Origin: Schmidtea nova
Taxonomy: Eukaryota
DNA: 50,367 nucleotides
Assembly (NCBI GenBank): GCA_044892505.1
Contig: CM097883.1
Location: 391,468,234 to 391,518,600, forward strand
Reading direction: 5' to 3'
In this document: one piece after another, positions 7,721 to 26,857 of the stretch
Layout of the letters: every line of letters starts with the position of its first letter
Position numbering within the stretch: position 1 is the stretch's first letter
Notes under the pieces: generated by a model
What the model saw: the letters and a program-made list of their open reading frames with translations, nothing else
Databases searched by the model: none
What the model was told of the DNA's origin: nothing
Position numbers and translations under genes: made by a program

Positions 7721-8338
7721 ATTAAAGTTAAAAAAAAAAATTATCAAATTGAAGCAAAAATGAAAATTTTACTCAGTAAAGTCGTTTATTATTTTTCAAA
7801 AAATTCCTCTGTTTCCCTCCCTCGAATGCCAATTTCCTACCCCTTATACAACATTCTGATAACCACAATATTGCGCTACTTTGTCAAATTAAACTTTACA
7901 ATTACCTAAAAAATTAAACTACAAATCAACAATAAACTATAAAAAATTAGTAAACTACATATTAGAAATATTTTATTCGTTATTTTCTAATTGAGTACTA
8001 CCTCTTTAAACATTAATATCAAACTGCAAACCCGCACCATACTTTTATCAAAACTAATGTAAGATAAAATAAAGGAAATCCCCTGCAGTTATGTGTCACA
8101 CAATTTGTTGTATAACATACAACATTTTGTTGAATCAAGGTAAATTAAATTCGGCTACAAAAAGTTTGCGTAAAGATAGAGTCAGTAGTTTTTAGAACTT
8201 ATTTTTAATAAATTAAAAGTTCTGCGCAGGAGTTTGAGAAATGGTTACTAAATTTGGAAACCATTTTGTTTCAAATGTTTAGTGTTAAAATGTCAAAATT
8301 GAGTAGGTAGATGTGTGGAGCCGGGAACAAAGACATTA

Positions 8339-8500
8339 TGACTCATGCGTGGGCGGAAAAAAAAGAACAAAGACCCCCCCCTCCCCCCGGGGGGGGGTAG
8401 AAATTTTTTTTTTTGGTGAGTCATCGATGAGTCATCGATGACTCATCGATGAGTCATACTTTTTTTTTTGATGAGTCATCGATGAGTCATCGATGAGTCA
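8339..8500 (+). promoter_or_regulatory. Array of AP-1/TRE-type sites in the left TIR (11-bp unit TGASTCATCGA)
   Basis: TGA(C/G)TCA at 8339, 8417, 8428, 8439, 8450, 8472, 8483 and 8494. Function is inferred from the motif only. Confidence 0.6.
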
Positions 8501-8523
8501 TAATTTTTTTTTTCAAAAATTTT

Positions 8524-8726
8524 TTTCGCGCCAAATTTTTTTTTTCAAAAATTTTTTTTCGCGCCAAATTTTTTTTTCAAAAATTTTTTTTCGCGCCAAA
8601 TTTTTTTTTCAAAAATTTTTTTCGCGCCAAATTTGTTTTTCAAAAATTTTTTTCGCGCCAAATTTTTTTTTTCAAAAATTTTTTTCGGGCCAAATTTTTT
8701 TTTTCAAAAATTTTTTTCGCGCCAAA
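8524..8726 (+). promoter_or_regulatory. Tandem array of 7 E2F-type sites (TTTCGCGCCAAA) in ~32-bp T/A-tract units, left TIR
   Basis: Six perfect copies plus one CGGGCC variant. The 12-mer matches the overlapping double E2F site of mammalian DHFR promoters. Confidence 0.65.
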
Positions 8727-9184
8727 TTTTTTTTTCAAAAATTTTTTTAATTAGTCCAAATTTTTTTTTACTAATTTTTAAAGACGAATTTTTTTTAAGA
8801 TAAATTATTTTTAGTCAAATTTTTTTTTAAAAACAAAATTCGAGTAATCAAAAATATTTACAACAGGTGTGCAAACAAAGACATTTTTTTTATGTGTGCA
8901 TGTTTAATTAATTATTATTTGTCAAGTATGAAGCTTTTGCACTTCAAAACCATCACAGAAGAGGTTCTGCTTCCAGGGTTCTGATCGCAATGTTCTGCTT
9001 CCAGGGTTCTGATACTAAATGTTCTGCTACATTTAATTATTATTTTTTCAAACTAAAGACATTGCAACACGCGTGCAACATGAACAAAGACATTGCAATA
9101 CACATGCAAACTAAACAAAGACACATGCGTGCAACACATAAACAAAGACATTAAAAAGACAAAATTTATTTATAAATATATCGT

Positions 9185-9950
9185 NNNNNNNNNNNNNNNN
9201 NNNNNNNNNNNNNNNNNNNNNNNNNNNNNNNNNNNNNNNNNNNNNNNNNNNNNNNNNNNNNNNNNNNNNNNNNNNNNNNNNNNNNNNNNNNNNNNNNNNN
9301 NNNNNNNNNNNNNNNNNNNNNNNNNNNNNNNNNNNNNNNNNNNNNNNNNNNNNNNNNNNNNNNNNNNNNNNNNNNNNNNNNNNNNNNNNNNNNNNNNNNN
9401 NNNNNNNNNNNNNNNNNNNNNNNNNNNNNNNNNNNNNNNNNNNNNNNNNNNNNNNNNNNNNNNNNNNNNNNNNNNNNNNNNNNNNNNNNNNNNNNNNNNN
9501 NNNNNNNNNNNNNNNNNNNNNNNNNNNNNNNNNNNNNNNNNNNNNNNNNNNNNNNNNNNNNNNNNNNNNNNNNNNNNNNNNNNNNNNNNNNNNNNNNNNN
9601 NNNNNNNNNNNNNNNNNNNNNNNNNNNNNNNNNNNNNNNNNNNNNNNNNNNNNNNNNNNNNNNNNNNNNNNNNNNNNNNNNNNNNNNNNNNNNNNNNNNN
9701 NNNNNNNNNNNNNNNNNNNNNNNNNNNNNNNNNNNNNNNNNNNNNNNNNNNNNNNNNNNNNNNNNNNNNNNNNNNNNNNNNNNNNNNNNNNNNNNNNNNN
9801 NNNNNNNNNNNNNNNNNNNNNNNNNNNNNNNNNNNNNNNNNNNNNNNNNNNNNNNNNNNNNNNNNNNNNNNNNNNNNNNNNNNNNNNNNNNNNNNNNNNN
9901 NNNNNNNNNNNNNNNNNNNNNNNNNNNNNNNNNNNNNNNNNNNNNNNNNN
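9185..9950. other. Assembly gap inside the Polinton (other gaps: 3530-3890, 5901-6355, 30339-30467, 36865-37653, 39436-39628)
   Basis: Runs of N. Confidence 1.
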
Positions 9951-10166
9951 TATTAATAATAATATTAATAATAATAATAATAATACTATAAATCAAAATA
10001 ATAAAACACTTAATAAAACATATAATAATAACTTATAATAACTTATAAAAATAACTTATCAAAAAGAAAAAAACTAATAAAAATAACTTATAAAATATTA
10101 ACAAAAAAAAAATAATAATTTCTTAGTTTTAATTGATTGCGCAATTTATTACAATCAAAATGTAAT

Positions 10167-10182
10167 GGCCCTAAAGAGGACC
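10167..10182 (-). terminator. Histone-mRNA-type 3' stem-loop 2 (GGTCCT-CTTT-AGGGCC) downstream of polB
   Basis: 6-bp stem and 4-nt loop with histone-like flanks (AAC...ATTACA). An AATAAA follows on the same strand at 10150-10145. Confidence 0.6.
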
Positions 10183-10436
10183 GTTAATTCGTTCACATTC
10201 TGATTCGGCTTTCTGAATATTTTCATCATTTGTTTCTGTGTATTTTCCTCATTTGTTTCGTATGATTTTTAATCATTTGTTTCGGATTATTTGTTTCTGA
10301 ATATTTTCATCAACATTTCTTTCTCTTTATTTTTATCAATTGTTTTGGATTATTTTCATCATTTGTTTCTGTAATCTTTTTTTTTCTTCATCTGTAAGCT
10401 AAAATTTAGTAATATTTGTTTACAATCATAAATTGT

Positions 10437-10452
10437 GGCCCTGAAGAGGGCC
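10437..10452 (-). terminator. Histone-mRNA-type 3' stem-loop 1 (GGCCCT-CTTC-AGGGCC) 143 nt after the polB stop
   Basis: Fits the GGYYYT-YTYN-ARRRCC consensus and is followed by ACAA, in sense orientation to polB. Confidence 0.65.
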
Positions 10453-10594
10453 GATTGTTCATTCTCATATCTTTTTTTTTTTTTTTGGTTTTTTGATTTT
10501 CTTTTTTTTTTTTTTGGTTTTTGATTTTCTTTTTCTGGTTTTTTAACTTTTTTTTTCCATTTCATTCTTATCATCTTTCTCCTTGCCATCATAA

Positions 10595-10658
10595 TCATGC
10601 GAAATAATCCCGAGCCGTCGGGTCATAGAAAGCGTAGGGGTCATCTTGTTGTTGAAGC

Positions 10659-10692
<34 letters not shown>

Positions 10693-13600
10693 CTTGGACA
10701 TCCCTATCACCTACAAATATAGTGGTGTCACCCCCCATATAATGACCATACGCCAAACTTTTATTTTTTTCCACCCAGTTCCTCTTATCGTCCCTACAAG
10801 ATAAAGCCCTCTTATTACTTTTAATACTGAAAAGTTGGTGGTTTTTCGAAGTAATGCGGAACTGGGGGACATTGTATATCTTATCATTAAGGTAACAGTC
10901 AAGATAAGATTGATGTGTGAGACCTGCATCTTTCAAACAGATCCCCTTGGCTTTCATGCAGGCCTCGTCTCCCATAAGACTATAGCACTTAGGTCTCAAG
11001 AAAACCCACTCATCATACAGTAGACCCTTATTCTCATCCTTAAATTTGCCAATCACAGAATCTAGGGTCCTACTATACAATGTATGACGAGTGTCGTAAT
11101 TAGAGGTATCCAAAAGCCTATCTCGAATCATGGCGGTCAAAAGGGTGTTAAGATCAAGATGTTTGATTTCCAAGAAGAAGGAATCAGTATCCCCAGCAAC
11201 GATGTTAATTTCGCAGTTGAAGTCGTTACGATATTTTTGTAACTCTTCATACTGCAGCTGGTACATACGAAGTTTGGATAAATCCAGTACGGTTTGTCCA
11301 ATGTAGCTGGGTCTATCCAAACATACTGATTCCTTCTGAAGCAATACGGAGATGAGATCATTGTCGATTTTTGTAGTTTTTTTGAAATTAGCTTTTGACG
11401 TGTAAGTCAGCAGTTTTTGTGCCGAGTTACACAGTCGTAAATTTATGCGTTTTTTTAAGTTCTCTACGGTTTTGCCGTAGAGACTATTATTTAATAATTT
11501 GTAAAAATTTTTATCGAGCTTGTTGGTAGCAGCCGCTCGTAAACTGGTGTTTATGTTTATGTAATTAAAAAATATTTTTTCTTGCTTAAATTTAATAGCC
11601 CTGTGGACTTTAGTTACAATTACACCGATTTTTATAAATAGTTGCAGAAGCCGCCAATGAAGAACATAATTCTTCTTTGGAAGATGCGTTAGCAACAGCT
11701 TCTCAACCTTGGATCCCGGTGCACACATCTTTTCAGCGGCAACTGGAAGATCATCCAGTTTGTCGTGAATCGATGCCGGAATTTCCAAATCCACTTCTAT
11801 GGTGTAACCATAATGAAGTGTATCGAGATTTCCCGATGTGCACTCACAAACGATTTGATTTAATAATTGGTCATCAGTGACCCACTCAAAATTACCACAA
11901 GGAAGGGGTTGGCTTAAGGCCCACCCGTATAAATTATTTATGTCAATATATAGTAATGCGGTATCCGGGCTCGTCTTGACATAATGTTTATTGACAAACG
12001 TTAGTCCGCCGCGAATACCGCCCTCGAAAAAGTTATACATCTCCATATCGGTGAGGAGCTCGATAGGAGAGTCAAGTGTTAATAAAGCGGAACTCCACGA
12101 CATGCCGGGAATTCCGAGAAAATTTAAAGGCTCAAGCCTGTTATGGTTAATTGATTTTAATCGAAATTGCTGAAAATAATCAGCTAACAAAAACACATCC
12201 AATTTTAAATAAACCATCATGTAATCGTACAGTGATGTACATGATGTTTCTTGCCAGATTTTATGGGCAGCAGCATACTCGACAGCAGTTATATCTTTCC
12301 ATTTCGGGGGTAAACACAAGGTTGATTTTAAAACTTCTAAAGAAGTGGCAGCGTCGTAAGGAAAAATGCCCTTGGCAGTGACTATAGTGCCTCGAAATTC
12401 AGATTGTGTTAATGGTAAGCTAGTGAGTGTTTTTACTTCGTTATTTAGAGACTCACTTACAAACTGATAAGAGTCAATAAATTTTACGGTCAGGCTATCG
12501 ATGTACGCGAAAAGGCTAAGAAACTTTTCACTTGTCAAGGGTATACAACTAATATTCCAACTGTTGTATTTTGAAAGACCATATTTTAAAATATGGTGTA
12601 AATCGTAACCCTTCAAGTTATGAAAGATTACGGGCAAAGAGTGTCGTATTTGCCGTGACTTGTTACACTCTGAGCAGGCTGCTCCAATATAAAGACCGGT
12701 GAAATGGTCGTGATCCCTAACAGGTGCCACTAAAAGTTTTTTGCATAAATAACAATTAGTGCTATTATCAAATTGTCGCTGTTGGGTCGCAGTGATAGTC
12801 ATGCGTTTTTGATAATTTTTATAGTAATAGGGTGTCACTATATACCGACTGATTGACTCAATTTCTCTTAAGAATTGATCAACACAGTCTAACCCTACAA
12901 AAGATTTGTAAATTCTCACCCCAGAAAAGTTGTTAATGAGAAGGAGACCTGCGGCAATAGGAAGATGTTTTTGGTGGTGAACAGTGTCTTTCGGTAATAT
13001 TGCCTCGAAATCCGCATATATTACAAAAGGAGGAGTTACTGTTTTTTTCCAATCAGTAAACTCCAAAAATTTATTTTTGGGTAATGTGTACAGTGTGGTA
13101 CCCAACTGATTTTTGTTACAAAGACCCTTATGACGATTAAAGGCTTCGTCGTTCCTAAACCCATTCAAGCAACGAGGGCACCATTGACTACAAATCCTAA
13201 CTGGGGTGATTGTGCTGTTTCGGCAATTCAAAAAGCGATTCAGATCGGTAATCGCAAGATAATGAAAATTATCTTTTTTCTCCAAGAGAAGCAAATTTAT
13301 GGGAATAGCCCCGACTACTTTACTACGGTAGACTATATCGATAAAGGGGTGTTTAAGGACGACATTATCATCATTGTCGTTGTCGCTTATATCAATTTGG
13401 GCCTTTTCGTCATATGTAAGGACATTTATACTATAGCCACTGTTTTGTCTTTCAAATTTTTTAATATTTACTAATTTCATGGGCATGTCGTTGGGGTCAA
13501 AAACAAGTTGGGAAATGTCATAAGAAGTAGTCCTATGCCTGTATTGGCGTTCAATACTATTGTATTTAACTACTGCTAAAAAGCTATATAAAAAGCAATA

Positions 13601-14221
13601 GGTGTCATTATTTTGTACATTAACTAAACAACTTAAATTTTTTAAGGTATTCGGCGTTTCGATATAACTGCTGCCGCTCAATCGACTAATTTCAGAAAAT
13701 TTAGTCACTAAAAAACTAATATATTCGATTTTGGAGATTGTCCAATTACTCCCCTTTTCGTTAATCTGGACAATCTTCTCATTTAAATTAGTGACACCTT
13801 CCTCAATAAAGGTATCACTCCACTCTCTGGCAGAATTTGAGATGACGAAAGATTGTAGTTGATCATCTTTCTCAAATTCTACCTTGAGACAAAATTGAAT
13901 TTTTACAGATTTTAAATTAATAATATAAGATTTTAGTTTTTCTAATAATATATCCGGCACAGAGACCGTTTTTAATAATAAATTAGATACATCCATTTTT
14001 ATAATAAAATGGGTATCGTTCAAGTCGGAAGTAACTTCAACAATACCCATTCCAATTTGATTATTATTATTATTTAAAATATTAACATAATCGTCAAATT
14101 CATCATCATTGACGATTATGTCATCGGCGGATATAATACTGATATTAGTACTTTTATTATAAATAAGATCATCCTCATCATCACTGATGAGGGATATAAT
14201 ATTATTATTATTATTATTAAT

Positions 14222-14284
<63 letters not shown>

Positions 14285-14823
14285 ATTTTCATCTTCATCA
14301 TCGCTGATGTCGATTATTATAATTTTTTTAGGAACTGAATCCATTAATGTTTGGTTTTTTCTTTTATTTATATTTGATGTATTGATTTTATTTGTATTTT
14401 GTATATTATTTGTTTTAATAGTATTTTGTAATTTATTTGTATCAATAGTATTTTGTAATTTATTTGTATCAATAGTATTTTGTAAATTATTTGTATTAAT
14501 AGTATTTGTTGTATTATTATTATTATTTGTATTTATATTATTTGTTGTTTTATTTCTAATAGGAGTATTTGATAAATTATTAGTTTTATTCGAAATATAA
14601 TTTTTATATAACGAATTAAAAAGTGATTTTTTAGATGGTTGGTATTGGGAAAGGTGTGACCTATGAAAGATATAAAATTCCCTATAAGAAGTAGTTTCAA
14701 TAATTTTACATTTAGGGCATAGGAGGTGGGTGACACCATTATATTTATATGAATAATACTTTTCCATAATGACATGACAGTCACTATGGAAAGTATTATT
14801 GCAAAAATTTTGGTATATTGAGC
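10595..14823 (-). CDS. polB: Protein-primed family B DNA polymerase (pPolB), main exon; ATG-only ORF 10595-14767, 1390 aa
   Basis: Exo I YADFE, Exo II FHNLKGYD, Exo III YLKLD, Pol A YIDINNLYG, Pol B KLLNNSLYGK, Pol C GDTDS, and KAKG. Also an EndoVII-like RDHDHFTG..CSECN insert and an OTU-like DTYCF...HY region. The frame stays open upstream to a CAG acceptor at 14826-14824. Confidence 0.97.
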
Positions 14824-15870
14824 CTGAATATTGAAAAAAAAAATTAAAATCAAAGGCTACAATTATAAAATTAAAATATTATGAGTAAAAATTAAAATAT
14901 TATTAGTAAAAATAAATATTTCAAATAAGAGATTATTACCTATTAAGTTAATGATTAATATATTTTTATAACAAAAAAAAAATTAATATTTTGATAAATA
15001 TTTAAAATAATAGTTAATTGTTAAAAAATAAACATTTACCTATTATTTTAAATATAATCAAAAGTTTTATATATATATATTATTTTTAAAACCTAATCAT
15101 AAAAAATAATATTATTTTTATATCATTATAAAATCATCATTAAAATATTAAAAATTGTTCATCAATATAATATATTCTTCATAAAAAATTTCAGCATAAT
15201 AATATCATCTTCGTCATAAAAAAAAATTGAGCGTAATAATATCATCTTCATCATAATAAAAAAAAATTGAACATCATCATATCATCTTCTTCATAATAAA
15301 AAAATTGAACATCATCATATAATCGTTTTTTTTTTTTTGTCATAAAAAATTTCAACTACATATTTTTTATTCATAAAAATAATTTTATATATATATTAAA
15401 AATAATAAAAAAATATTAGCATAAATATATAAAAAATAATATTATTAATTTCATATAAATTCAACATTATTTCATCATAAAAAATTTGAGCATTATTATA
15501 TCATCTTCATCAAAAGAAAAAATTGAACATCTTCATATAATATTTTTTTTTATCATAAAAATTTTAACATTATATTTTTTTCTTCATAAAAAAATTTATC
15601 TTTTTCTTCATAATAAACATTTCTTTTCATTTCAAATTCATAATATCATAATTTTTTTCTTCATAATAAAAATATATCTTTTTTATTTTCATTTCAAATT
15701 CATAATATCATATTTTTTTTTCTTCATAATAAACATTTATTTTCTTCATAAAAATAATTTTATCATAAAAAATTAATTAATTTATTTAAAAATATTCCCA
15801 TAGGAATTAATTAAAAATAATAAAAATATTATTATTATTATCATATACAAAAATAAAAATAAAAAATTAC

Positions 15871-16257
15871 ATTTGCCAGAGTTTTTTCCAATAAAACTCT
15901 GCATATTGGACCATCCGTTATAAGCATCATTAATCGGGACATCGTTACTCGGCATATTGGTACTCGAGACATCGAAATTCAGGACATCATTATCATCACC
16001 ATCATCATTAATCGAGGCATCTATATCAACAACATTTCCTAAAAAATTGAATAATAAAGAAAATAATAATTTAATAATATTAATTTTACTATTTAATCTG
16101 TTTTGATTTTGGATTCTTAACGATGTTCCTACCATATTGTTGGATAAATTAACACCTAGAAATAATATATTATAAATATAATAAAATAAAAATTAATAAT
16201 TTTACTTTTTAGACCTCCGGCGATCCTTGTTGGTAAATTAATATTTAAATTTTGCAT
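15871..16257 (-). CDS. Three upstream coding exons (16257-16206, 16155-16090, 16038-15871), probably the 5' exons of polB
   Basis: GT-AG introns of 50 nt (16205-16156) and 51 nt (16089-16039), all phase 1. A donor at 15870 is phase-compatible with the polB acceptor (T+GC = Cys), giving a 4515-nt frame (1504 aa + stop). Confidence 0.6.
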
Positions 16258-16325
16258 AATTGCTTTAGAAATTGATTAGAAATTTGTTATAAAATTTGAA
16301 AGTAAAAAGTGACGAAATAATTCAA

Positions 16326-16476
16326 GTATATACTATATAAAGGTGAATTTTATTAACCGACCAATCAGAATCGAGATAGGATAGGTAAATACATGCACAC
16401 ACATACTGCACACATAATATACCTTTGTTTATGTGTGTTTGACGTCACGATATTGCTTTGTATCGTGACAAAGACA
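16326..16476 (-). promoter_or_regulatory. Putative polB promoter: TATA-like, CCAAT, CRE and ACAAAGACA elements
   Basis: TATATAG at ~16339-16333, CCAAT at 16361-16365, TGACGTCA at 16440-16447 and ACAAAGACA at 16468-16476, all upstream of the ATG at 16257. Confidence 0.5.
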
Positions 16477-16615
16477 TGACATGTGATTATCACGCATTGA
16501 TCACGCACTGGTCATGCCTTTGTGATGAAAATAATAATATTTATAATTAATAATAATAAAAATAATAATTAATAAAAATAATAATAAAAATAATAATAAA
16601 AATAATAAAATACAT

Positions 16616-17017
16616 TTATTGCTTTAAATAATCAACAACAGCAGACAAGCACCCTTTATAGGCACACATGCAATGATCTTTATAGGGACATGAAATGTTT
16701 TCAGGAACATATTCAACATCTTTAAAATTATATTTAATTAATCTTAATTTGGGGAAATACTTCTTCAAAACATACATCTTTTCATGATCTGTTACATAGA
16801 AAATAGCTCCTTTATCTGTAATATCATCCATTATACATTTTGGGCAAAAATAATCTTGTCCTTCAAACGATTCTATACGATCAGGCCATAAAGATAAATC
16901 ACTGTATATATAATACTGAGGTGTGAATATATTATTGACATTCATAATACATAATTCCTTAATTGTTGTTCCACCCATTTCATTATATCCATAAAAATCA
17001 ATAAAATAACAAGACAT
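16616..17017 (-). CDS. Small conserved Polinton accessory protein (133 aa), possibly DnaQ/DEDD nuclease-like fold
   Basis: N-terminal IDFYGY...IKELCI, central FYV..HEK..LK and C-terminal CP..H..CA resemble a recurrent Maverick protein family as I recall it. The fold assignment is tentative. Confidence 0.55.
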   Translation of the reverse strand: MSCYFIDFYGYNEMGGTTIKELCIMNVNNIFTPQYYIYSDLSLWPDRIESFEGQDYFCPKCIMDDITDKGAIFYVTDHEKMYVLKKYFPKLRLIKYNFKDVEYVPENISCPYKDHCMCAYKGCLSAVVDYLKQ

Positions 17018-17049
17018 TTTTTCAAATAAAGTTTATTAAAATAAATTGT

Positions 17050-17427
17050 TTATAACATTGATTTCAACCATGCAAGGCAATGTTCACCACAAGTGATTGT
17101 TAAAGGATGCTGATACCGAATTCTATTATACACAATAGGTTTACCGATAGTTTGTAGTTTTCGAACAAGTAAATTCGGATAATAATATCCAAATGGATCA
17201 AATACATGTATTCGATCTGGTTTCACATAAACTGCAATCCAATGTTCACCACCCAATGTAGATGTCTGAGTATTTACAATGATGGCTTGATTCATTTTCA
17301 AATAAGGTATTTTATCGAGAGGAAATACTCCAATAAATTGATTTCCCAATAGTTTTTTACCTTGTTGTAATACCTGAAAAGAACTAATTAAAAATAAATA
17401 ACTAATCAATTAAAAATCTTACTCCAT
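17050..17427 (-). CDS. Adenain-like (family C5) maturation cysteine protease, 2 exons (17427-17423, 17383-17050), 112 aa
   Basis: GEHW, FDPFG and Q..TITCGEHC supply His, Asp, Gln and Cys. A 39-nt GTAAGA..TAATTAG intron yields the N-terminus MDSFQVL..FIGVFP. A TATAAA lies at 17465-17460. Confidence 0.9.
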
Positions 17428-17467
17428 AATAATAATAATAAAAATAATAACTTTGATCATTTATACT

Positions 17468-17538
17468 GTTTGAGCTCTGCTCAAACCAGTAATGTTTAAG
17501 CTTTGCTCAAACTAGTAATGTTTGAGCTCTGCTCAAAC
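17468..17538. repeat. Three 26-bp-spaced copies of a 19-bp palindrome GTTTGAGC-TCT-GCTCAAAC between MCP and protease
   Basis: Copies at 17468-17486, 17494-17512 (variant) and 17520-17538. The last overlaps the MCP stop codon. Confidence 0.9.
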
Positions 17539-18753
17539 CAGTATTGTTCGATTGGCAGTAATTTGAACTTCATTTTCAAAAACTCCATAAATAACTACAT
17601 GAACCGGTTCATCAATAGGTTTTGCAAACTTTATATCCAGTCGTAAATTTCCGTTTTGAGGGATTTGGCTTTGATTCAAATCAAAATCGGGAGCCAGAAC
17701 AAATGTAAAGAATGGATAACTAGATTTAAATTCATCTAGACCAATACCACAATTCAAGTTTTTATCCAAATAACCTAGATTTCGGACAAGACTTTGCATA
17801 TATGATGCACTAAAATTATCATTTTCAAAATCCTGGGTATATGTTTCACGATAATCGGTATTTTTCGACAATGTTAATGAAGTCACATTAAAGTGTTTGA
17901 ATGTAGATGTTGACTCAGTATAAGACCCATTATATTGATTTTCGGATTGAAAAGCCACAAGAATGAAATTAGGCATTCGTCTATCTCCAAATATTTGCTC
18001 CTTGTAAAATGACGATGCCCCTTTACCGATAGCAAACGATACGATTTCTTTGGATTTTAATGGATAAATTGCATGTTTTTTATTTAAACCAATTTGATGA
18101 CCGGCCAATACTGAAGAATCACATCGAACTCTTCTTACCATTAATTTTGCATCAACTATTTGGATAACTGGTTTTCCAGCTACCGATTTCAATGATAATG
18201 CAGAATCAGATCGCTTCAATCTAATATGTACATTAACTCCGGGAAGTAAGTATTTAGGTTGATCCATAAAATCCAGTTGTAATGACGAACACATGTTGAA
18301 AAGTTTAGATCCTTTAATCCATTTTTTTCGATCGTCAGCTGAACCATATCCCATTGGAGTAAGACATGTTTCTTTAGCATCATTCGTATAATTTAAAATA
18401 GTTTCGATTATTGCCTTGTGTGCATATGTATTGTTTCCACCCTCGATTTTTATATTATTAAATCCGAGAATTACATCTTTGAAAAGTGTATGAAACAGGT
18501 AATTATTAGGAACTACATCACTCGCATCGGCTAGAGCTTTTTTATCTTTATCTACAACTTTGATTGTAACGGACAATAATGTATCGTTCAAATCCAAATA
18601 TTCGGTTTGAGAACCATTAATGTAAAATTCAACATCATTTCTACTATCTGTAATTGAATTCATTGGAAACACATCTTCAAACGCCCCATATTCAATAACT
18701 GCTTGAGGTGATGGTCGATCAAAAAGACATAATTCAGATTTACCGCAAATCAT
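17533..18753 (-). CDS. Major capsid protein (double jelly-roll, Polinton PY), 406 aa
   Basis: CGKSELCLF..P..IE, VEFYI.G..EYLDL..T.L, LDFMDQPKYLLPGV and GNLRLDIKF are typical Polinton MCP motifs. Confidence 0.93.
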   Translation of the reverse strand: MICGKSELCLFDRPSPQAVIEYGAFEDVFPMNSITDSRNDVEFYINGSQTEYLDLNDTLLSVTIKVVDKDKKALADASDVVPNNYLFHTLFKDVILGFNNIKIEGGNNTYAHKAIIETILNYTNDAKETCLTPMGYGSADDRKKWIKGSKLFNMCSSLQLDFMDQPKYLLPGVNVHIRLKRSDSALSLKSVAGKPVIQIVDAKLMVRRVRCDSSVLAGHQIGLNKKHAIYPLKSKEIVSFAIGKGASSFYKEQIFGDRRMPNFILVAFQSENQYNGSYTESTSTFKHFNVTSLTLSKNTDYRETYTQDFENDNFSASYMQSLVRNLGYLDKNLNCGIGLDEFKSSYPFFTFVLAPDFDLNQSQIPQNGNLRLDIKFAKPIDEPVHVVIYGVFENEVQITANRTILV

Positions 18754-19133
18754 TCTTCAAATATAGTTCCATGACCTTTCATTCGTTTGTTTATACGCTT
18801 TCGTTTACGTCTTGGTCCTACCGGTACAGATTCCGGTTCCTTATTTTTTGTAAACATACTTGTAATTGTAGGAAGCATTTGTGTTACAGCAGGTATAGCT
18901 TTATTAACTGCGGCCAAAGCATTGGTTTTCAATGACGGTAATATTTTATTATCTTTCATGATAACGTCCTTGGCAGTATTCATTCCGAAATTACCTAGTC
19001 GTCTAAGAATTGGAAGTGCAAATCTCCCAATAGTTTTCAACCAACCTGATCCATACTGTTTACCGACAAAATACGGTAATTCGCCACCAGTTTGGCTATC
19101 ACTGTACATTGAAACTATATCGGGATTACTCAT
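18750..19133 (-). CDS. Putative virion core/membrane-lytic precursor protein, 127 aa
   Basis: QTGG and QYGSG glycine motifs, then an amphipathic WLKTIGRFALPILRRLG helix and a basic RRKRKR tail. Lies between mCP and MCP with overlapping start/stop codons. Confidence 0.7.
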   Translation of the reverse strand: MSNPDIVSMYSDSQTGGELPYFVGKQYGSGWLKTIGRFALPILRRLGNFGMNTAKDVIMKDNKILPSLKTNALAAVNKAIPAVTQMLPTITSMFTKNKEPESVPVGPRRKRKRINKRMKGHGTIFEE

Positions 19134-20169
19134 CGTTTTTTCGAAAATGTAGAGTTAAGTGAGTTTTTGAATCTTTTGGAAATTTTATAAATCTTCCACT
19201 GTCATCCCGGATATTTATTTCTATATTGTTTATACAGGATGTTGAAACAGGTAAATACATTGGATTTTCAACTTGTATTTGAACAATTTCATCTGGCTCG
19301 TATTTTTCAATCCATATAGATTTTAGTAAAGGAACCAAGGAATCACCAACAATAATGGGTTCGATAATGTTTGTATATACGAATAATTGCTGATGAAGTT
19401 TAGATATTTTCGGTTGACGAACACCAGAAATAATATTTTTATCGGTAAATGTATCCTTATCTAATCCCAATGTATTGACCAAGTATTTATCAAATCTGAC
19501 TTTATTGATTTTTTCTTTGAGTTTGAATTTAAACAATTTATTTAATTCGACAACTGTAAAAATATCCGAACAATTATCGCTAATATATTTCTGTAATTCA
19601 TCTAGATGCGTTATATACAACTCCTCCTTGAAGGTGAATACATGTCCTTCTTGACGATCATACGATATTTTAAAAGTAATTATTTCTTCATCGTTACTGG
19701 CCAAGTTTTGCATAACTTTGAATTCACATTCTTCTTCATTACATATCATTGTCAGTTTATTACTTCCCATTCGTTTTGCTACATCAAGATCGTTAAATGT
19801 AATTGTATACGGAACAACATTACACGTGAGAATTATTCTTCCACTTCGTTGCCACATTTCGATATCCGGATCAATTGTGTGAGTTGGAACATTCAGAAGG
19901 CCACTATTATTATATATCGAGAAAAATGCATTTGCAACAGTTGTTTTCGTAATATAGTAATATATTTTACAATAACTATAATATGGAAAAGGATGGTAAA
20001 CAAATGTAAAATCCATTAGAGCAACTTCCCAATTTCCGTTTAAATAAATAGGATTAGGTAAATTCACCATGAATTTACTTGCGGTATTATCTGGATGGAT
20101 ATTCGGACAACTATTACTCGGTAAAATAGTGTAAAAATTCACTTTACTAGATTTTTTGACGAGATCCAT
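19126..20169 (-). CDS. Minor capsid protein (penton, Polinton PX), 347 aa
   Basis: FYTILPSNS..PDNT..F.V.LP.PI.L.G.WEVAL and LFVYTNIIEP..VGD..VPLL..Y.PV..IEINIRD. Confidence 0.92.
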   Translation of the reverse strand: MDLVKKSSKVNFYTILPSNSCPNIHPDNTASKFMVNLPNPIYLNGNWEVALMDFTFVYHPFPYYSYCKIYYYITKTTVANAFFSIYNNSGLLNVPTHTIDPDIEMWQRSGRIILTCNVVPYTITFNDLDVAKRMGSNKLTMICNEEECEFKVMQNLASNDEEIITFKISYDRQEGHVFTFKEELYITHLDELQKYISDNCSDIFTVVELNKLFKFKLKEKINKVRFDKYLVNTLGLDKDTFTDKNIISGVRQPKISKLHQQLFVYTNIIEPIIVGDSLVPLLKSIWIEKYEPDEIVQIQVENPMYLPVSTSCINNIEINIRDDSGRFIKFPKDSKTHLTLHFRKNDE

Positions 20170-21183
20170 GATGGTTCTTTATATCCATGCCATTTGACAT
20201 AGTATTGTTTATCCTTACCCACCATTTTAGTCTTCAAAATCTTTTGAATTCTAAATATCGTAGGTTTAGGAATAACTTGTAATTCTTGTTCGTAGAATTT
20301 GCCGCTGATTATATTGTTATCAGAGTCACGAATAGTATACATGACAGGATTCTGCACTGTGTTGACTTTCGATATTTGATATACCTCATCACTCCAATTA
20401 TTATCAAAATTTTTAACGAATGGCGATGTACTAATCTTGCTAATTCGAACATGATCATCAACTTTATATTTTGGTTTCTTTACTTTCACTTCACTCACAA
20501 TATTTTCAGTATCAACTACTTCTGCCGGTTTCCTACCATTTATACCCCGATGAGCACTATGATTATAACTATGAATCAATTGAGGTAAGACATTAATCCA
20601 GGTTTTATTGCCTTTAAAAACAAAGTATTTTTTCAATCGATCACGCAAAGTTCGATTAAGTCTCTCGACATGAGCGGCTTTGAATTGTGAGAATACCGAA
20701 TAATGATTTATTCCCTTGATAACTTCCTTGACTTTACTGTTGTAAAACTCCTTTCCTAAAAAATATTAAATTTATAAATTTAAATTAAAATTTACCCAAA
20801 TCGGTTTGTAAATTAGTTGGCCGATCCTTTTTCATCATTGTCTTGATAGCAATTGCCATATCATTAGCAGATTTTGATTTTACTCCAATTGCTCGAGCAA
20901 ATCTACTGTAAACATCAATACACGTTAAAATATACTTGTACCCCTTGTTAATTTTGGAATACGGAATCATTTCCATCAAGTCCATTTGCCACAAATCATT
21001 GATTCTATATGTTTTATATGCTCGAGTTGGAAACCGTTTCAACATCGGCTTGTTTAGACTGTATGCAAGTTGCCCCGATAACCAACTTTGTGTCTGTTGT
21101 TTCGACTTCTGTGCTTTTTTCCTTAGCTTTTCGACTCCACCGAAACCGGCGTCGTCTTTTGGGTTCGTCCAGATCTTCTCCAT
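20139..21183 (-). CDS. int: Retroviral-type (rve) DDE integrase with C-terminal chromodomain, 2 exons (21183-20796, 20755-20139), 334 aa
   Basis: WQMDL, QTDLG|KEF and VERLNRT form D-D-E once the 40-nt GT-AG intron 20795-20756 is removed. Total 1005 nt in frame. YYVKWHGY..SW chromodomain. Confidence 0.95.
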
Positions 21184-21238
21184 TACAACAAGAAGATTTA
21201 AAGTTTAAATTTAAATTAGGTAATGATTGACCCATTGT

Positions 21239-21748
21239 TTATGACTTTCTTTTTCCCAATAAACCAGCACCTCCCAATAAAGATAATGCTAATGGTAACA
21301 ATGCTGCGATAAAACCACCTTGTTGTTTATATATTACTTTGCGCATAAGTTTTTTATTTTTTGAGTTTACTAGCGACAACAATGGTTTTTTATGTTTGTT
21401 CAAAACACGGCGATTAGATGGAGTTAGATTTATTTTACCTCGCACGACTTTAATTAAAATAGAGAGTAAATCATCGATGACGTAACTAGGAAACGATTGA
21501 AGAATACCCATTCTTCTAACGGAAGGGGCTTTAAGTAATGCATTAAAAAACGGTAAACTACGATGATGTGTTTGTTTAGCATTAGATTTCAAATTATTTT
21601 TGGGAATATTATCCATAAGTATTTTCTTGGATTTCTTTCTTGATTTCTTTATAGATTTCTTTGTAAATAGTTTCTTTGTTTTCTTTCCCGCTTTCTTTGT
21701 TCTAGCCTTTATCAATGGCTCAAACTTTACTCGAGATTTCATTAACAT
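21239..21748 (-). CDS. Putative basic DNA-binding core protein precursor, 169 aa
   Basis: Lys/Arg-rich N-terminus. C-terminal QQGG-FIAALLPLALSLLGG hydrophobic segment with protease-site-like GG motifs. Confidence 0.7.
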   Translation of the reverse strand: MLMKSRVKFEPLIKARTKKAGKKTKKLFTKKSIKKSRKKSKKILMDNIPKNNLKSNAKQTHHRSLPFFNALLKAPSVRRMGILQSFPSYVIDDLLSILIKVVRGKINLTPSNRRVLNKHKKPLLSLVNSKNKKLMRKVIYKQQGGFIAALLPLALSLLGGAGLLGKRKS

Positions 21749-21768
21749 GATTACGATTGCAAACAGAA

Positions 21769-22392
21769 TTAACTTTGTTTATAAACCATGGCTCCTTCAG
21801 GGTTAAAAATATCGGTTCTAACCCGTAAATCATCACTACATTGTTGAGTAAAATCAAGGAAAATATATCCATGAGGAGATTTTGTAGCATCTTGAAAGGC
21901 TTCAATCAAAAAGTTACGATTAGAAGGATAAGCTTGTCTTGCCAGAAAATCAATAACTGTTGCATCTCTAGGATTTTTAAAAACAACAAGATATTGAACA
22001 TTTAAATTACGAGTTCGATGACTACCGCCCTGATGAAATAAATTCTGAGTTATAAAAATAACAGTAACACCTTTATGTCTACTGATTTTCGTAAATAAGT
22101 TATTGAAATCCTTTTCTTTATTTGCTTCTTGATACAAGTCGTCAATGATAATCACATCACCATGTTTTAATCTAGATGACCAGTTTTTATCGAAACCTTT
22201 AATGATTGTCATTTTTATTTTACAAAACTGATCTTGTGTCATTCCACTTTCGTCGTCAGCACCCCTATGCCAATAAATATTATTAAATTTTGACTTGAAT
22301 AATTTCGATTGCAATAATTTACAAACAAATAAAGTTTTTCCACTCCCGCTCGGACCAACAATTTGAAACACTGCATCATTTCTTAATTCCAT
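21769..22392 (-). CDS. FtsK/HerA-superfamily (A32-like) genome-packaging ATPase, 207 aa
   Basis: Walker A GPSGSGKT, Walker B IIIDD, SRH..VIFITQNLF and N.QYLVVFKNPRD. Confidence 0.95.
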   Translation of the reverse strand: MELRNDAVFQIVGPSGSGKTLFVCKLLQSKLFKSKFNNIYWHRGADDESGMTQDQFCKIKMTIIKGFDKNWSSRLKHGDVIIIDDLYQEANKEKDFNNLFTKISRHKGVTVIFITQNLFHQGGSHRTRNLNVQYLVVFKNPRDATVIDFLARQAYPSNRNFLIEAFQDATKSPHGYIFLDFTQQCSDDLRVRTDIFNPEGAMVYKQS

Positions 22393-22485
22393 ATTTAAAA
22401 ATTATATTTTCTTAATATTATTGTTTATATTTGTTTTAAATACCTGTTCTCAAAGTAATTATTTCATTTAAAAATATTTTCAGTA

Positions 22486-22953
22486 ATGATTAGAAACATT
22501 AATTACAAAGGTAAGACAGATGTATCACACATGAAATTTCCAAATGGAAAACCCCAGCAAATTGTAGATCGAAGTGGAAAATACCCAATAATATACTTTA
22601 AATCAGGAAGATATAGAATAATGGGATGCAGGGAATTTATTAGTGACGAACAAGTTGAGTTTTACGATTTAAAGATACAATCGATAACTGTAACTGCGGA
22701 TTTAGGATTTATTTGTAATTTGAATGAATTATCGAAATTAATACCATGTGTTTACGAGCCAGAATTATTTCCAGCTTTGAGATATATCAAATATAATCCC
22801 ATGTGTGTAAATATATTTGCAAGCGGGAAATTAGTCATATTAGGATTAAAAAACAAAGACTATAGTACTATAGTTGATGATATTATTTACGATATAAAAT
22901 CAATTATAGAAGATAAAGCCTTTATTGATTTCATACTAACATGTGACTCATGA
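22486..22953 (+). CDS. TATA-box-binding protein (TBP)-like protein, 155 aa
   Basis: Two TBP repeats: RNIN..IIYFKSGRYRIMGC and KIQSIT..DLGF..L..L..YEPELFPALRY..NIFASGKLVILGLK, compared with canonical YEPELFPGLIY..LIFVSGKVVLTGAK. Confidence 0.88.
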   Translation: MIRNINYKGKTDVSHMKFPNGKPQQIVDRSGKYPIIYFKSGRYRIMGCREFISDEQVEFYDLKIQSITVTADLGFICNLNELSKLIPCVYEPELFPALRYIKYNPMCVNIFASGKLVILGLKNKDYSTIVDDIIYDIKSIIEDKAFIDFILTCDS

Positions 22954-23128
22954 CTGCAATATCGATGCATTAGAAATGCACGATTCTGATTGGCTCTGTG
23001 TGTATCGATAGAATAAAGACATGTTGTGCATGCTTCATTCTGATTGGTTCATTATGTATGTTTCAAATCATGTGTGTTTCTTTGATATATATACTATGAA
23101 CAATCTCACATAGTTTATATTCACAATA

Positions 23129-23792
23129 ATGTCTCTTACGCAAACACTAATTAAAAGCCGTAAGGATTTTTAATTATTTATTTATTAAAATTAATATTAT
23201 TTCTTTTTTAGAAAAGTTGATGAACGTTATTTACAGAAAGCTTGAGGAACTGTTCCCAAATCTTATGCCAGCTCTGGTCTATACGGCTCCTGAGATGTTC
23301 CCGTACAAGATAATGGTCTTGACGGGAATCGACATCAATCAGATTGTGCTCGATCACATGACGAGCCAGAATACTGATCTTCCAAGGGTACCCGAGCACA
23401 TTATCTGTGCGTACCAATGCGGGAGCTGCGTGGAACGCATTCGTCAATTTAATATTTGGGTTTTGCGAAACTCATTGAGATTATACGAAGTCCAGCAAAT
23501 GGACAAAATCGATGAGGAAAAGGAAGATGATGAACAAGTCAAGGAAACATGGCCGAACTCGACTCCGGAACCGAATGATGATGAAGATGATCAATCAAAA
23601 AATGATTGCTCAATGGAACATGCACCATCTCTAGATGGTCCGTATCCATCGAAATCACCTGATTGTTCAGAATCTCCACATTCACCCGATTGTGCCGAAT
23701 GCCATCGACAGGCTGATGGTGTTGATAATGATGATGAAGAAGAAGAAGAAGAACAAGAAGAAGAAGAAGTAAAAGAAAACGATGAACAATAA
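23129..23792 (+). CDS. Hypothetical protein with acidic C-terminal tail, 2 exons (23129-23159, 23212-23792), 203 aa
   Basis: The ORF-track start is a TTG just after a TTTTTAG acceptor. A 52-nt GTAAGG..TTAG intron restores an ATG start in phase (612 nt). GC content is raised, and CCAAT and TATA-like elements lie upstream. Confidence 0.7.
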
Positions 23793-24290
23793 TCTGATGT
23801 GTATGTGTGTGTTTAATGTAATTAGTTTTTTTCTTTTAGTTATGTTATTTTAGTTTAATAAAAGTTTATTTATTTATTTTAGTTTTTTTATTCATTTTAG
23901 TTTTTGTTTTCATTTAAATAATAGTAATAGTTTTATTTTTTTTTTTTTTTATTAAAACATTTTAAGTAGTAGTTTTTTAATTAACTGTATATAAAAGTTA
24001 AAAAAAAAAAATTTTTTATTAAATACTTTTCAGAAAGAAAGTAGTAGTAGTAGTATTATAAAATAAATAAGAACATTAGGAACAGAACCTATTCTGTGTT
24101 GGTTTTGATATGCAAAAAGCTTCATACTAAACATATACTAATTAATTAAACATGCACGCATACAACAAAAATATTGCAATACATGTGCATACTGTGTGCA
24201 AAACAAATGCATGAATATGATTGGACAAAGACATCCAGTAATCAGTATAAATACAAAGACATTTTATAAAATATTGTCACAATTTACAAC

Positions 24291-24707
24291 ATGCAATCAC
24301 GAAAAGAAAATCTAGATATAAGCGAAGAAAAAATATATCAGACTGAGGTAAAACCAGTTCAGATGTACTATGACAGCCGACTTTATTTTTTGGTTAATGA
24401 AATACCGTATCGATTATCATTTCCGGTAAAGTTAACAAAATCTTTATATGACAGTCTTGCTATAATTATTTCCAAAGCAGATATTATCGCATTAAATCGA
24501 TTATTTTCAAAGATCAATGTTAATTTGACATGTAAAGAAACAATGTACATCAATAACCGAAAAACTCGGTTTCATGATGCTTTTCAGACTATTGATTTCA
24601 TGGATCAAGAACACTGGTTCGTTACAGTTATTATTCAAGGGTACAAGATTGATAAAAAAGATGTTGTTACTCCGATTTGGAGAGTTGACAATGCAAGATA
24701 CGCATAA
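24291..24707 (+). CDS. Hypothetical Polinton protein, 138 aa
   Basis: Clean ATG ORF with TATAAA at 24246-24251, an ATTGG box upstream and AATAAA ~10 nt after the stop. Confidence 0.7.
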   Translation: MQSRKENLDISEEKIYQTEVKPVQMYYDSRLYFLVNEIPYRLSFPVKLTKSLYDSLAIIISKADIIALNRLFSKINVNLTCKETMYINNRKTRFHDAFQTIDFMDQEHWFVTVIIQGYKIDKKDVVTPIWRVDNARYA

Positions 24708-24771
24708 TTGTTTTTTAATAAATATTTTAGTATGAACAAATTTAGTTTTTATATTAGTTTTTGTTTTTAAA

Positions 24772-25353
24772 ATGAAATTAATTATAGTTATTTTATTATT
24801 ATGTGTTGACAATACTGAAGGAGAACAAGCTTTGGAGGATTGTCAATCATCACATCCGTTTCGAAAACAAGATAGTACTTGCGCGAGTTATAACGATATA
24901 TGTCTTTACTCAAACATTGAATGCAATCAAATTAAATTACAATGTAATCAATGTCCTTCCAAAAATAATGTGATTAATAATGATATTGAAAAAATGATTA
25001 ACAAAATAATTATGAAAATAGTTGAACGATTAAAATGTATAAATCAAACTATTGTTAAAAAAGAATATGAAGTCAGATACCAAAATCAAACAGTTGAAAA
25101 CGAAAAAACATCAATTGTTTTACATTATATAAGTTTATTTATATTAATAATAATACTGATGTTATCGGCATCCATACGGCTGGAGAAGATTTCAAATATT
25201 CCAAAGAATAATATTCCGACAAATACTAGTATTCCGATGAATAATATTACAATGAATAATATTCCGATGAATAATATTCCGAGTAACAATTCAGATGTAA
25301 ATAATTTTGAAACTAAATTTTGTACACGTACACAACGATATATTTATAAATAA
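24772..25353 (+). CDS. Type-I membrane protein with signal peptide and 6-Cys ectodomain (TNFR-CRD-like), 193 aa
   Basis: Hydrophobic N-terminus, C-x12-C-x6-C-x6-C-x6-C-x2-C, two NQT sequons, TM segment ISLFILIIILMLSASI and an NNIPMNN-repeat tail. Confidence 0.7.
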   Translation: MKLIIVILLLCVDNTEGEQALEDCQSSHPFRKQDSTCASYNDICLYSNIECNQIKLQCNQCPSKNNVINNDIEKMINKIIMKIVERLKCINQTIVKKEYEVRYQNQTVENEKTSIVLHYISLFILIIILMLSASIRLEKISNIPKNNIPTNTSIPMNNITMNNIPMNNIPSNNSDVNNFETKFCTRTQRYIYK

Positions 25354-26354
25354 ATTTTGTCTTTTTTAATGTCTTTGTTTATGTTGAACGCATGTGTCTT
25401 TGTTTAGTTTGCATGTGTATTGCAATGTCTTTGTTCATGTTGCACGCGTGTTGCAATGTCTTTGTTCATGTTGCACGCGTGTTGCAAAGTCCTTGCACGT
25501 GTGTTGCAATGTCTTTGTTAACTTGCACGCATGTTGCAAAGTCATTAGTTTGAAAAAATAATAATTAAATGTAGCAGAACATTTAGTATCAGAACCCTGG
25601 AAGCAGAACATTGCGATCAGAACCCTGGAAGCAGAACCTCTTCTGTGATGGTTTTGAAGTGCAAAAGCTTCATACTTGACAAATAATAATTAATTAAACA
25701 TGCACACATAAAAAAAATGTCTTTGTTTGCACACCTGTTGTAAATATTTTTGATTACTCGAATTTTGTCTTTAAAAAAATAATTTGACTAAAAATAATTT
25801 ATCTTAAAAAAAATTCGTCTTTAAAAATTAGTAAAAAAAAATTTGACCTAAAAAAAAAAATTTTTGAAAAAAAAATTTGTAAAAAAAATTTTTGAAAAAA
25901 AAAATTTGGCGCGAAAAAAATTTTTGAAAAAAAAATTTGGCGCGAAAAAAAATTTTTGAAAAAAAAATTTGGCGCGAAAAAAAATTTTTGAAAAAAAAAA
26001 TTTGGCGCGAAAAAAAATTTTTGAAAAAAAAATTTGGCGCGAAAAAAATTTTTGAAAAAAAAAATTTGGCGCGAAAAAAAATTTTTGAAAAAAAAATTTG
26101 GCGCGAAAAAAATTTTTGAAAAAAAAAATTATGACTCATCGATGACTCATCGATGAGTCATCAAAAAAAAAGTATGACTCATCGATGACTCTTCGATGAC
26201 TCATCGATGACTCATCGATGACTCATCGATGACTCATCAAAAAAAAAAAATTTTCTACCCCCCCCCGGGGGGGAGGGGGGGTCTTTGTTCTTTTTTTTTC
26301 CGCCCACGCATGAGTCATAATGTCTTTGTTCCCGGCTCCACACATCTACCTACT
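25335..26354 (-). repeat. Right terminal inverted repeat of the Polinton (at least 1020 bp)
   Basis: Mirror of 8302-9184. Contains 7 TTTGGCGCGAAA copies (25905-26108), 9 perfect TGASTCA sites (26132-26317) and extra TTGCA/CTTTGTT subrepeats (25410-25545). Confidence 0.95.
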
Positions 26355-26857
26355 AAATTGGTTTCATTCAATTGTTTTTTCTATAACATAAAAACTCAAT
26401 ACAATTATATTATAGGCTTACTTGTGTGTCGAAGACCTTTTTTCACTTTATTACCATTTTCATATGGCTTCCACACTATATGAAAAAAACAAATCTGCGC
26501 ACTAACTCAGAATCATAATATAAAAGACACGATATAACTTGTAGAAAAATTAAGCTTTTCATTAATTTATTTTTGTCAATATATTTTAAACAATGAAATT
26601 TTATCTAAAAAATATTCTTAGAAATATATCTGCACTGTCTACTCCTATTAATTAAATAATGTAATTTGATTATTTTTCTTATACAAAATTTCTATGTTAT
26701 TAAATTTTTAGAAATCGAAAAAATACTTGAAAATGTTTAAAAAAATTTTATATTTAATTTATAATTAGTAAGCTTAGAAATTATTTTAATTTATCTACAT
26801 AATAATTAATAATTTCTTAAAATATTCATAAAAAGTTTAATAATCATTAGCCCAATA

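Follow-up and report, generated by a model that had tools for sequence, protein, structure and literature searches.

A Polinton of Schmidtea nova encodes a short TATA-binding protein with a rewired DNA face, a candidate switch for late genes behind a TATA variant

The open reading frame (ORF) at 22486-22953 of the window (the whole stretch of 50,367 nucleotides of Schmidtea nova DNA analyzed here) is a TATA-binding protein (TBP) homologue within an intact Polinton. On sequence evidence, we put a probability of roughly 65% on the reading that it encodes a Polinton-specific TBP of altered specificity, likely a late-gene switch, which is predicted to bind the box TATAAACA and to recruit host TFIIB and RNA polymerase II (Pol II). 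Positions of the gene and its promoter region are as follows:

22486-22953, plus strand: short TBP-family gene, 155 aa (155 open codons; Pfam, PDB and AlphaFold model)
22393-22485, no strand assigned: divergent promoter region between the TBP and ATPase genes, 93 bp

The Pfam TBP profile (PF00352) matches residues 62-133 of the protein (E = 1e-13, 51.3 bits, cut-off 22.9), and a PDB sequence search returned TBPs in 35 of 35 matches (best E = 8e-18). An AlphaFold model, computed with 38 aligned relatives as input, has a pLDDT of 93, and Foldseek, at E ≤ 0.001, listed 40 rows for this model, every one a TBP chain. Residues 1-142 of the model align with residues 164-337 of human TBP (VIA; Z = 11.8, 140 residues, rmsd 2.9); both lobes are therefore present, and the protein is modeled as a two-lobed TBP saddle with a continuous beta-sheet. 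An ESM Atlas query yielded TBP clusters only, with recognition under the reliable level of that atlas. The original prediction of a TBP homologue is borne out by the profile match and by the model, and its description of a gene divergent from the structural and ATPase block across 93 bp is exact: the TBP and packaging ATPase genes stand head-to-head, 93 bp apart.

The Polinton occupies 8302-26354 (18,053 bp). Its terminal inverted repeats are long, its ends read AGTAGG, and a 6-bp target duplication, AAATTG, flanks it. Genes for family B DNA polymerase (PolB), integrase, ATPase and protease are all present, as expected of a Polinton/Maverick. Its main features are:

8302-9078, no strand assigned: left terminal inverted repeat, containing ATGAGTCAT words in tandem (preceded by the AAATTG target duplication, 8296-8301)
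10595-14767, minus strand: family B DNA polymerase (57-66% identity to PF03175 matches in genome G000)
17050-17295, minus strand: C5 maturation protease, last coding part (Pfam Peptidase_C5, E = 8e-6)
17533-18753, minus strand: 406-aa ORF, likely major capsid protein, from size and position only, without a Pfam match (232 relatives)
19126-20169, minus strand: 347-aa ORF, likely minor capsid protein, from size and position only, without a Pfam match
20785-21183, minus strand: integrase, N-terminal part of the rve core (Pfam rve, E = 2e-8)
21769-22392, minus strand: A32-like packaging ATPase, first gene of the late block (Pfam Pox_A32, E = 7e-7)
24291-24707, plus strand: 138-aa ORF, predicted Enc34-like single-stranded DNA-binding (SSB) protein (weak fold match, E = 7e-3)
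25523-26354, no strand assigned: right terminal inverted repeat (followed by the AAATTG target duplication, 26355-26360)

The minor and major capsid labels of the 347-aa and 406-aa ORFs are presumptive, assigned by size and gene order. An intron-like GT..AG stretch lies upstream of the last coding part of the C5 protease. Among the 14 ORFs of the element scanned with Pfam (those of 80 aa or more), matches were found to integrase, A32-like ATPase and C5 protease and none to RNA polymerase, TFIIB or herpesvirus late-factor families, in agreement with the earlier claim that the element carries no RNA polymerase. The element has at least 150 copies: 150 of 19,115 genome-search candidates were scored, and 150/150 are at 99-100% identity with no stops.

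The short TBP belongs to a sizeable family. A single-sequence search gave 58 matches among 66 candidates, 42 of them classed as short TBPs and most of the others as canonical TBPs. A profile search returned at least 120 clusters at 90% identity, the best 120 all being short family members and none coming from NCBI or UniRef, and 57 clusters at 50% identity match the short-TBP profile at E ≤ 1e-30. Another gene of this Polinton adjoins the TBP gene in 39 of 59 metagenome loci, many of the remaining contigs being only 1-2 kb long, and in G000 the TBP gene is head-to-head with the ATPase gene in all 30 ATPase loci (49-99% identity). The gene, first placed outside the standard Polinton core set, is therefore not rare but standard in this Polinton lineage.

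Ratios of dN/dS are 0.12-0.21 in four of nine G000 pairs (N-lobe, 0.06-0.13), dS being saturated in the other five, and 0.15-0.48 in eight of nine metagenome pairs; constraint is as strong in the N-lobe as in the C-lobe. Judged by these ratios, the family is under purifying selection. A degenerate passenger gene is ruled out by the dN/dS values together with the 150 scored copies without stops. A host pseudogene or a recent host capture is likewise ruled out: the near-identical host TBP that such an origin would predict was not found, host TBP-like loci matching at E = 1e-5 or weaker over short stretches. The phylogeny against host and giant-virus TBPs that had been suggested was run as two quick trees, both unrooted and without archaeal rows; in each, the short-TBP family falls on one side of a long branch (SH-aLRT 99 and 100, the first tree including one spurious row, L172), apart from canonical, host and large-virus TBPs. 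Four IMG/VR scans with family, ATPase and capsid queries gave no matches, and a scan of prokaryote genomes gave one, which reads as an unrelated enzyme. In the host itself, a single canonical TBP is accompanied by three or more diverged paralogue loci (L090-L094; 64%, 42% and 34% identity to a canonical query), and a search for host TFIIB returned Brf-like or intron-split loci, several diverged TFIIB/Brf-like loci being present (L096-L101). Introns, the TBP paralogues and the Inr-like promoters point to a host that is probably an animal.

We analyzed the residues of the protein over 123 relatives, leaving out two fragments; yeast TBP residue numbers were mapped onto the 155-aa protein by alignment. 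Three of the four canonical intercalating phenylalanines are kept, F38, F95 and F111 (yeast F116, F190 and F207), each in 123/123 relatives, as had been predicted; the fourth position (yeast F99) is P23, with Pro in 122/123. The yeast N69 position is kept in 117/123. Replaced positions in the N-lobe are, besides F99, V71 (to N, 118), V122 (to R, R44, 122) and T124 (to M, M46, 123), and those in the C-lobe are N159 (to S, S66, 120), V161 (to T, 111), I194 (to R, R99, 122), V203 (to C, C107, 123), L205 (to N, N109, 123) and T215 (to L, 106); the equivalent of yeast R196 is lost. The earlier description of the C-terminal repeat as well conserved holds in that the lobe is intact, but it is not simply conserved, as six of its DNA-facing positions are replaced. 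The candidate TFIIB glutamates of the C-lobe stirrup are both kept: E91 (yeast E186) is Glu in 118 relatives and Asp in 5, thus acidic in 123/123, and E93 (yeast E188) is Glu in 123/123.

The N-lobe of the model consists of strands only, with no helix of at least four residues before residue 79, so that helix H2 with its basic patch is missing. The linker from S5 to S1', the site of H2, measures 16 residues in the window protein against 31-32 in nine canonical TBPs, and 16-21 residues in 110 of 114 measurable rows. The predicted shortening of the N-terminal repeat was thus found in both the model and the alignment. Changes at I194, V203 and L205 alter TATA specificity in the yeast mutant TBPm3 (PMC1636458), the two stirrup glutamates are TFIIB contacts (PMC7221094), and N-lobe H2 is a surface for TFIIA, TAF1, Brf, Mot1 and NC2 (PMC7221094). 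Distant relatives (P0416, P0424, P0428, P0433, P0448, P0464) have longer N-lobes or linkers with helix-like segments, and their DNA face is already rewired. The rewired face is therefore the mark of the whole family, and loss of the helices sets a subgroup apart; rewiring of the face would have come before loss of the helices. Escape from the N-lobe regulators is not family-wide, as these distant relatives keep N-lobe helices.

TATAAAC(A) was first seen in the upstream regions of late genes. Six copies of TATAAACA lie within the element:

22422-22429, minus strand: ahead of the ATPase, first gene of the late block
21776-21783, minus strand: at the end of the ATPase gene, ahead of a 169-aa basic ORF
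21324-21331, minus strand: within the 169-aa ORF, ahead of the integrase region
19227-19234, minus strand: within the 347-aa gene (codons xxT-ATA-AAC-A), ahead of a 127-aa ORF
18788-18795, minus strand: within the 127-aa ORF, ahead of the major capsid gene
17047-17054, minus strand: at the end of the protease gene, ahead of a 133-aa ORF, last gene of the block

All six are on the minus (late) strand, each ahead of a gene start, and they cover six of the eight late-block genes, the 347-aa ORF and the protease being the two without a box. The word shows no enrichment when the whole window is counted (12 seen, 8.1 expected); the signal is therefore its placement. The late blocks of 10 TBP-bearing elements hold 54 sense and 0 antisense copies (5.1 expected), counts that are not independent, as these elements are related. 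Five PolB genes have 0 sense copies, and the PolB gene of the window (10595-14767) has no TATAAAC[AG] box. Among distinct relatives, the box precedes 26 of 32 starts of the ATPase, orf127, major capsid protein (MCP) and orf133 genes (9/10, 5/5, 6/6 and 6/11, respectively; ~0.9 expected in all), four sets that were picked after the upstream motif had been seen, a choice of which the whole-block counts are free. It precedes 3/6 protease, 1/7 integrase, 1/39 TBP and 0/10 SSB-like genes; the 347-aa gene, with its unreliable starts, was left untallied. The distance from the box to the ATPase ATG is 32-48 nt.

Where the box falls over codons of the 347-aa gene, ATA-AAC is used in 11 of 11 sites picked by amino-acid pattern, compared with 21 of 170 other Ile-Asn pairs, a codon bias that shows selection on the DNA itself. 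Position 7 of the box in late blocks is C in 54 cases, A in 10 (13.0 expected) and T in 3 (11.2 expected), canonical TATAAATA being rarer than chance (3 seen, 11.2 expected). Most particle-building genes of the element appear to have a single private TATA variant, TATAAACA, ahead of them. The idea that the box is a poly(A) signal belonging to the gene before it was considered and ruled out: the box precedes the first gene of the block, is absent after the last and lies within upstream coding sequence.

In some relatives (L039, L168-L171) the 347-aa (minor capsid-like) gene is present twice in tandem, and in the G000 example each copy has its own TATAAACA box ahead. There are also PolB-only derivatives (L152-L155, L164-L167; pairs such as L111/L112), some head-to-head ~5-11 kb apart; in G000 these regions are without capsid or late genes, TBP and TATAAACA box, and they are no fair control for the box.

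A control was found in a second, distant Polinton group of the same genome, returned by a Pfam capsid search (L189-L206, e.g. G000:C3:40021769-40037767; PF21738 capsid, PLA2-like domain). Family and canonical TBP profiles gave nothing better than E = 0.3 inside the element (two repeat-bounded elements; lines for five of six regions), and a very divergent TBP could have escaped detection. In this group TATAAAC occurs in 0 of 38 distinct upstream regions of late-strand genes, and its five late blocks hold 5 box copies (5.8 expected). The comparison is of one lineage with one lineage, and co-occurrence of gene and box may reflect shared ancestry. Genes of the second group start in A-rich TAAAATG or TAAATG contexts, reminiscent of the poxvirus late start.

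The TBP gene is preceded by other words. The plus strand of the window region 22393-22485 has no canonical TATA; TGTTTTA lies 54 nt ahead of the TBP ATG, and Inr-like TCA words lie 22 and 6 nt ahead of it. Across 39 distinct relatives, the upstream region contains an Inr-like TCA in 34 (7.3 expected), a canonical TATA in 22 (5.0 expected; TATA-to-TCA spacing peaking at 29-30) and TATAAAC in 1, which suggests two promoter classes in the element, one for late genes and one for the TBP gene. Sorted by word, the promoters of these relatives (L031-L089) have canonical TATA only (21), TGTTTWA only (13), both (1) or neither (4). Against 1.2 expected, 14 of the 39 carry TGTTTWA at 43-64 nt upstream of the TBP gene, nearly all of them lacking a canonical TATA; in the window a word of this type lies at 22432-22438. 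TGTTTWA resembles the late box reversed, and autoregulation of the TBP gene is possible. Ahead of the SSB-like 138-aa gene, CAGTATAAAT at 24243 is a canonical TATA and probably a host-TBP promoter. The original prediction had put CAGTATAAAT forward as the probe for the viral protein; it is not the enriched motif, and that proposal found no support.

The timing, binding, recruitment and activation that we propose would run as follows. The TBP gene would be made early, from a host-type promoter. The saddle of its product is predicted to read a box with C at position 7, off the host consensus TATAWAWR that is the canonical TBP target, and would prefer TATAAACA over TATAAAAG or scrambled DNA. The EPELF stirrup would dock host TFIIB and bring Pol II, since the element encodes neither a TFIIB nor a polymerase, and packaging, integrase and capsid genes would be turned on through the box. 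Loss of H2 would place the short TBP beyond TFIIA, TAF1, Brf, Mot1 and NC2. One caveat is that the C-lobe changes, by the usual polarity, cover the unchanged TATA half of the box; another is that the loss of R196 and of one intercalating Phe could weaken binding. The original prediction had offered redirection of host Pol II to viral TATA boxes, late-gene activation or a dominant-negative decoy; the private box, the late block and the restriction to the sense strand favor the late-gene activator, and a pure decoy is disfavored, since nothing in the family is more invariant than its DNA-facing residues.

The box could instead be a weak TATA that host TBP reads once the DNA has replicated; the viral protein would then be a decoy that ties up TFIIB or Brf, or a damper of host transcription. 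The invariant TFIIB/Brf glutamates and the loss of R196 and one intercalating Phe would suit such a role, and host TBP tolerates C at position 7: cellular TBP takes it in a crystal (PDB 1qn3, C(-25) variant), and TATAAAcg kept 27% activity in a plant assay (PMC10005294). A decoy, however, has no need of a rewired DNA face that is invariant across clusters less than 50% identical, and in boxes driven by the host, position 7 would be expected to wander toward A or T, whereas it is fixed as C (54 versus A 10 and T 3). We regard this reading as unlikely. Quite improbable, in our view, is that the protein binds the box in reversed polarity, acts as a repressor, or works only with another viral protein covering its helix-less N-lobe. 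The backward box starts with TG, and yeast TBP altered at I194, V203 and L205 accepts G at the second base pair counted from the C-lobe end (PMC1636458); the near-reverse TGTTTWA precedes the TBP gene in 14/39 relatives (1.2 expected), and herpesvirus TBP mimics need five partners (PMC6541308). Against this, the boxes sit on the sense strand at a TATA-like distance upstream, and the conserved neighbor orf138 is predicted to have an SSB-like fold, not that of a transcription factor. On a reversed complex, by the established PIC geometry, a polymerase led by TFIIB would face in the direction opposite to the late genes.

The box might also belong to a sequence-specific factor of the host, for example one of the forkhead type, leaving the TBP gene to serve other promoters. 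ATAAACA fits the forkhead consensus RYAAAYA, and GTAAACA is slightly over expectation in late blocks (13 sense, 7.4 expected). Yet GTAAACA shows no strand bias (9 antisense), whereas the box is confined to one strand (54 to 0) and depends on its leading T, and the TBP-less group in the same host lacks it; we consider this very improbable. Least probable of all is that the box is a late promoter belonging to some large DNA virus that acts as helper, with the TBP gene as an accessory. Promoter sharing with a helper is reported for virophages and Polinton-like viruses, but this element integrates and has intron-like stretches and host-type promoters, which point to nuclear Pol II, and the box tracks the presence of the TBP gene in the one contrast made.

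Read as a late-gene switch, the short TBP can be set beside several known proteins. With cellular TBP, eukaryotic and archaeal (PF00352; PDB 7egb_P, 2z8u, 1cdw), it shares the two-lobed saddle, three of four Phe, N69, the PELF loop and the TFIIB glutamates; it differs in that it belongs to a mobile element and lies on a long branch of its own, with ~25-30% identity, F99 changed to Pro, nine other DNA-facing changes and, in this subgroup, no N-lobe helices. Yeast TBPm3 (I194F, V203T, L205V) has changes at the same three positions that are invariantly changed in the short TBP (R99, C107, N109); TBPm3 is engineered and reads TGTA (PMC1636458), whereas the short-TBP changes are natural, to other residues, and their target is predicted. 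TBPs of large DNA viruses (NCLDV and mirusviruses) are likewise virus-encoded, with a diverged N-lobe regulator surface, and fold matches of the short TBP to them reach E = 7e-7. They come with a viral TFIIB, however, and their TFIIB-contact glutamate is ~40% conserved (PMC7221094), versus acidic in 123/123 short TBPs; 10 IMG/VR large-virus TBPs that we examined have canonical spacing and do not group with the family.

The TBP mimics of beta- and gammaherpesviruses (KSHV ORF24, EBV BcRF1, HCMV UL87), the precedent for the late-gene switch proposed here, also provide a polymerase-less virus with a TBP-like protein, and their late genes share a minimal altered TATA box, TATT, where the Polinton late genes have TATAAACA. 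The mimics are large, belong to a six-member complex and bind Pol II directly, whereas the short TBP has 155 aa and an intact TFIIB stirrup (mimics as described in PMC6541308). Fold matches to the mimics are weak (E = 4e-3 to 7e-2), and the short TBP therefore looks like an independent solution. By analogy, a shared altered late box would back a protein that works like a herpesvirus mimic, not membership in that group.

A TBP-like gene has been noted once in a Polinton-related element, as a figure legend entry in a section on non-animal datasets (Starrett 2021, PMC8502044, Fig. 5); the main text contains no analysis of it, and the main texts of PMC11131425 and PMC8097293 do not mention TBP. 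Within the literature covered, which excludes subscription papers, Repbase and the Starrett supplement, we found no published description of a Polinton TBP gene or of the TATAAACA box. By sequence the gene is widespread in the lineage, and the one possible published trace that we found is that legend.

These results bear on how integrated Polintons turn on their capsid genes and on whether they need a helper virus, a question that a dedicated factor and a matching 8-base box make testable. To our knowledge, particles of Polintons have rarely if ever been seen. Late genes, and autonomous lineages too, can be marked in sequence by the box. The family is also a natural experiment in TBP biology: with the TFIIB stirrup kept, both N-lobe helices can be lost and the DNA face rewritten without loss of the fold. 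More tentatively, at somewhat less than even odds, the lineage may run its own early-to-late program with a single orthogonal TBP of ~150 residues, a private box and host TFIIB, the regulator surface having been shed in this subgroup. If true, the protein would be to eukaryotes what a late sigma factor is to phages, no smaller viral late-transcription system would have been described, and there would be direct evidence of these elements as self-sufficient nuclear viruses.

Three further features of the window were noted. All 16 window copies of ATGAGTCAT lie within the terminal repeats (8338-8501 and 26131-26318; 0.5 expected); TGAGTCA is the AP-1 site, and the repeats are a possible stress- or wound-responsive enhancer. 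Near the right repeat, a 193-aa ORF (24772-25353) without a Pfam match has a signal-peptide-like start, a Cys-rich part and one hydrophobic segment. Left of the Polinton, broken transposase-like frames, presumably of hAT type, lie on the minus strand at 4345-5553.
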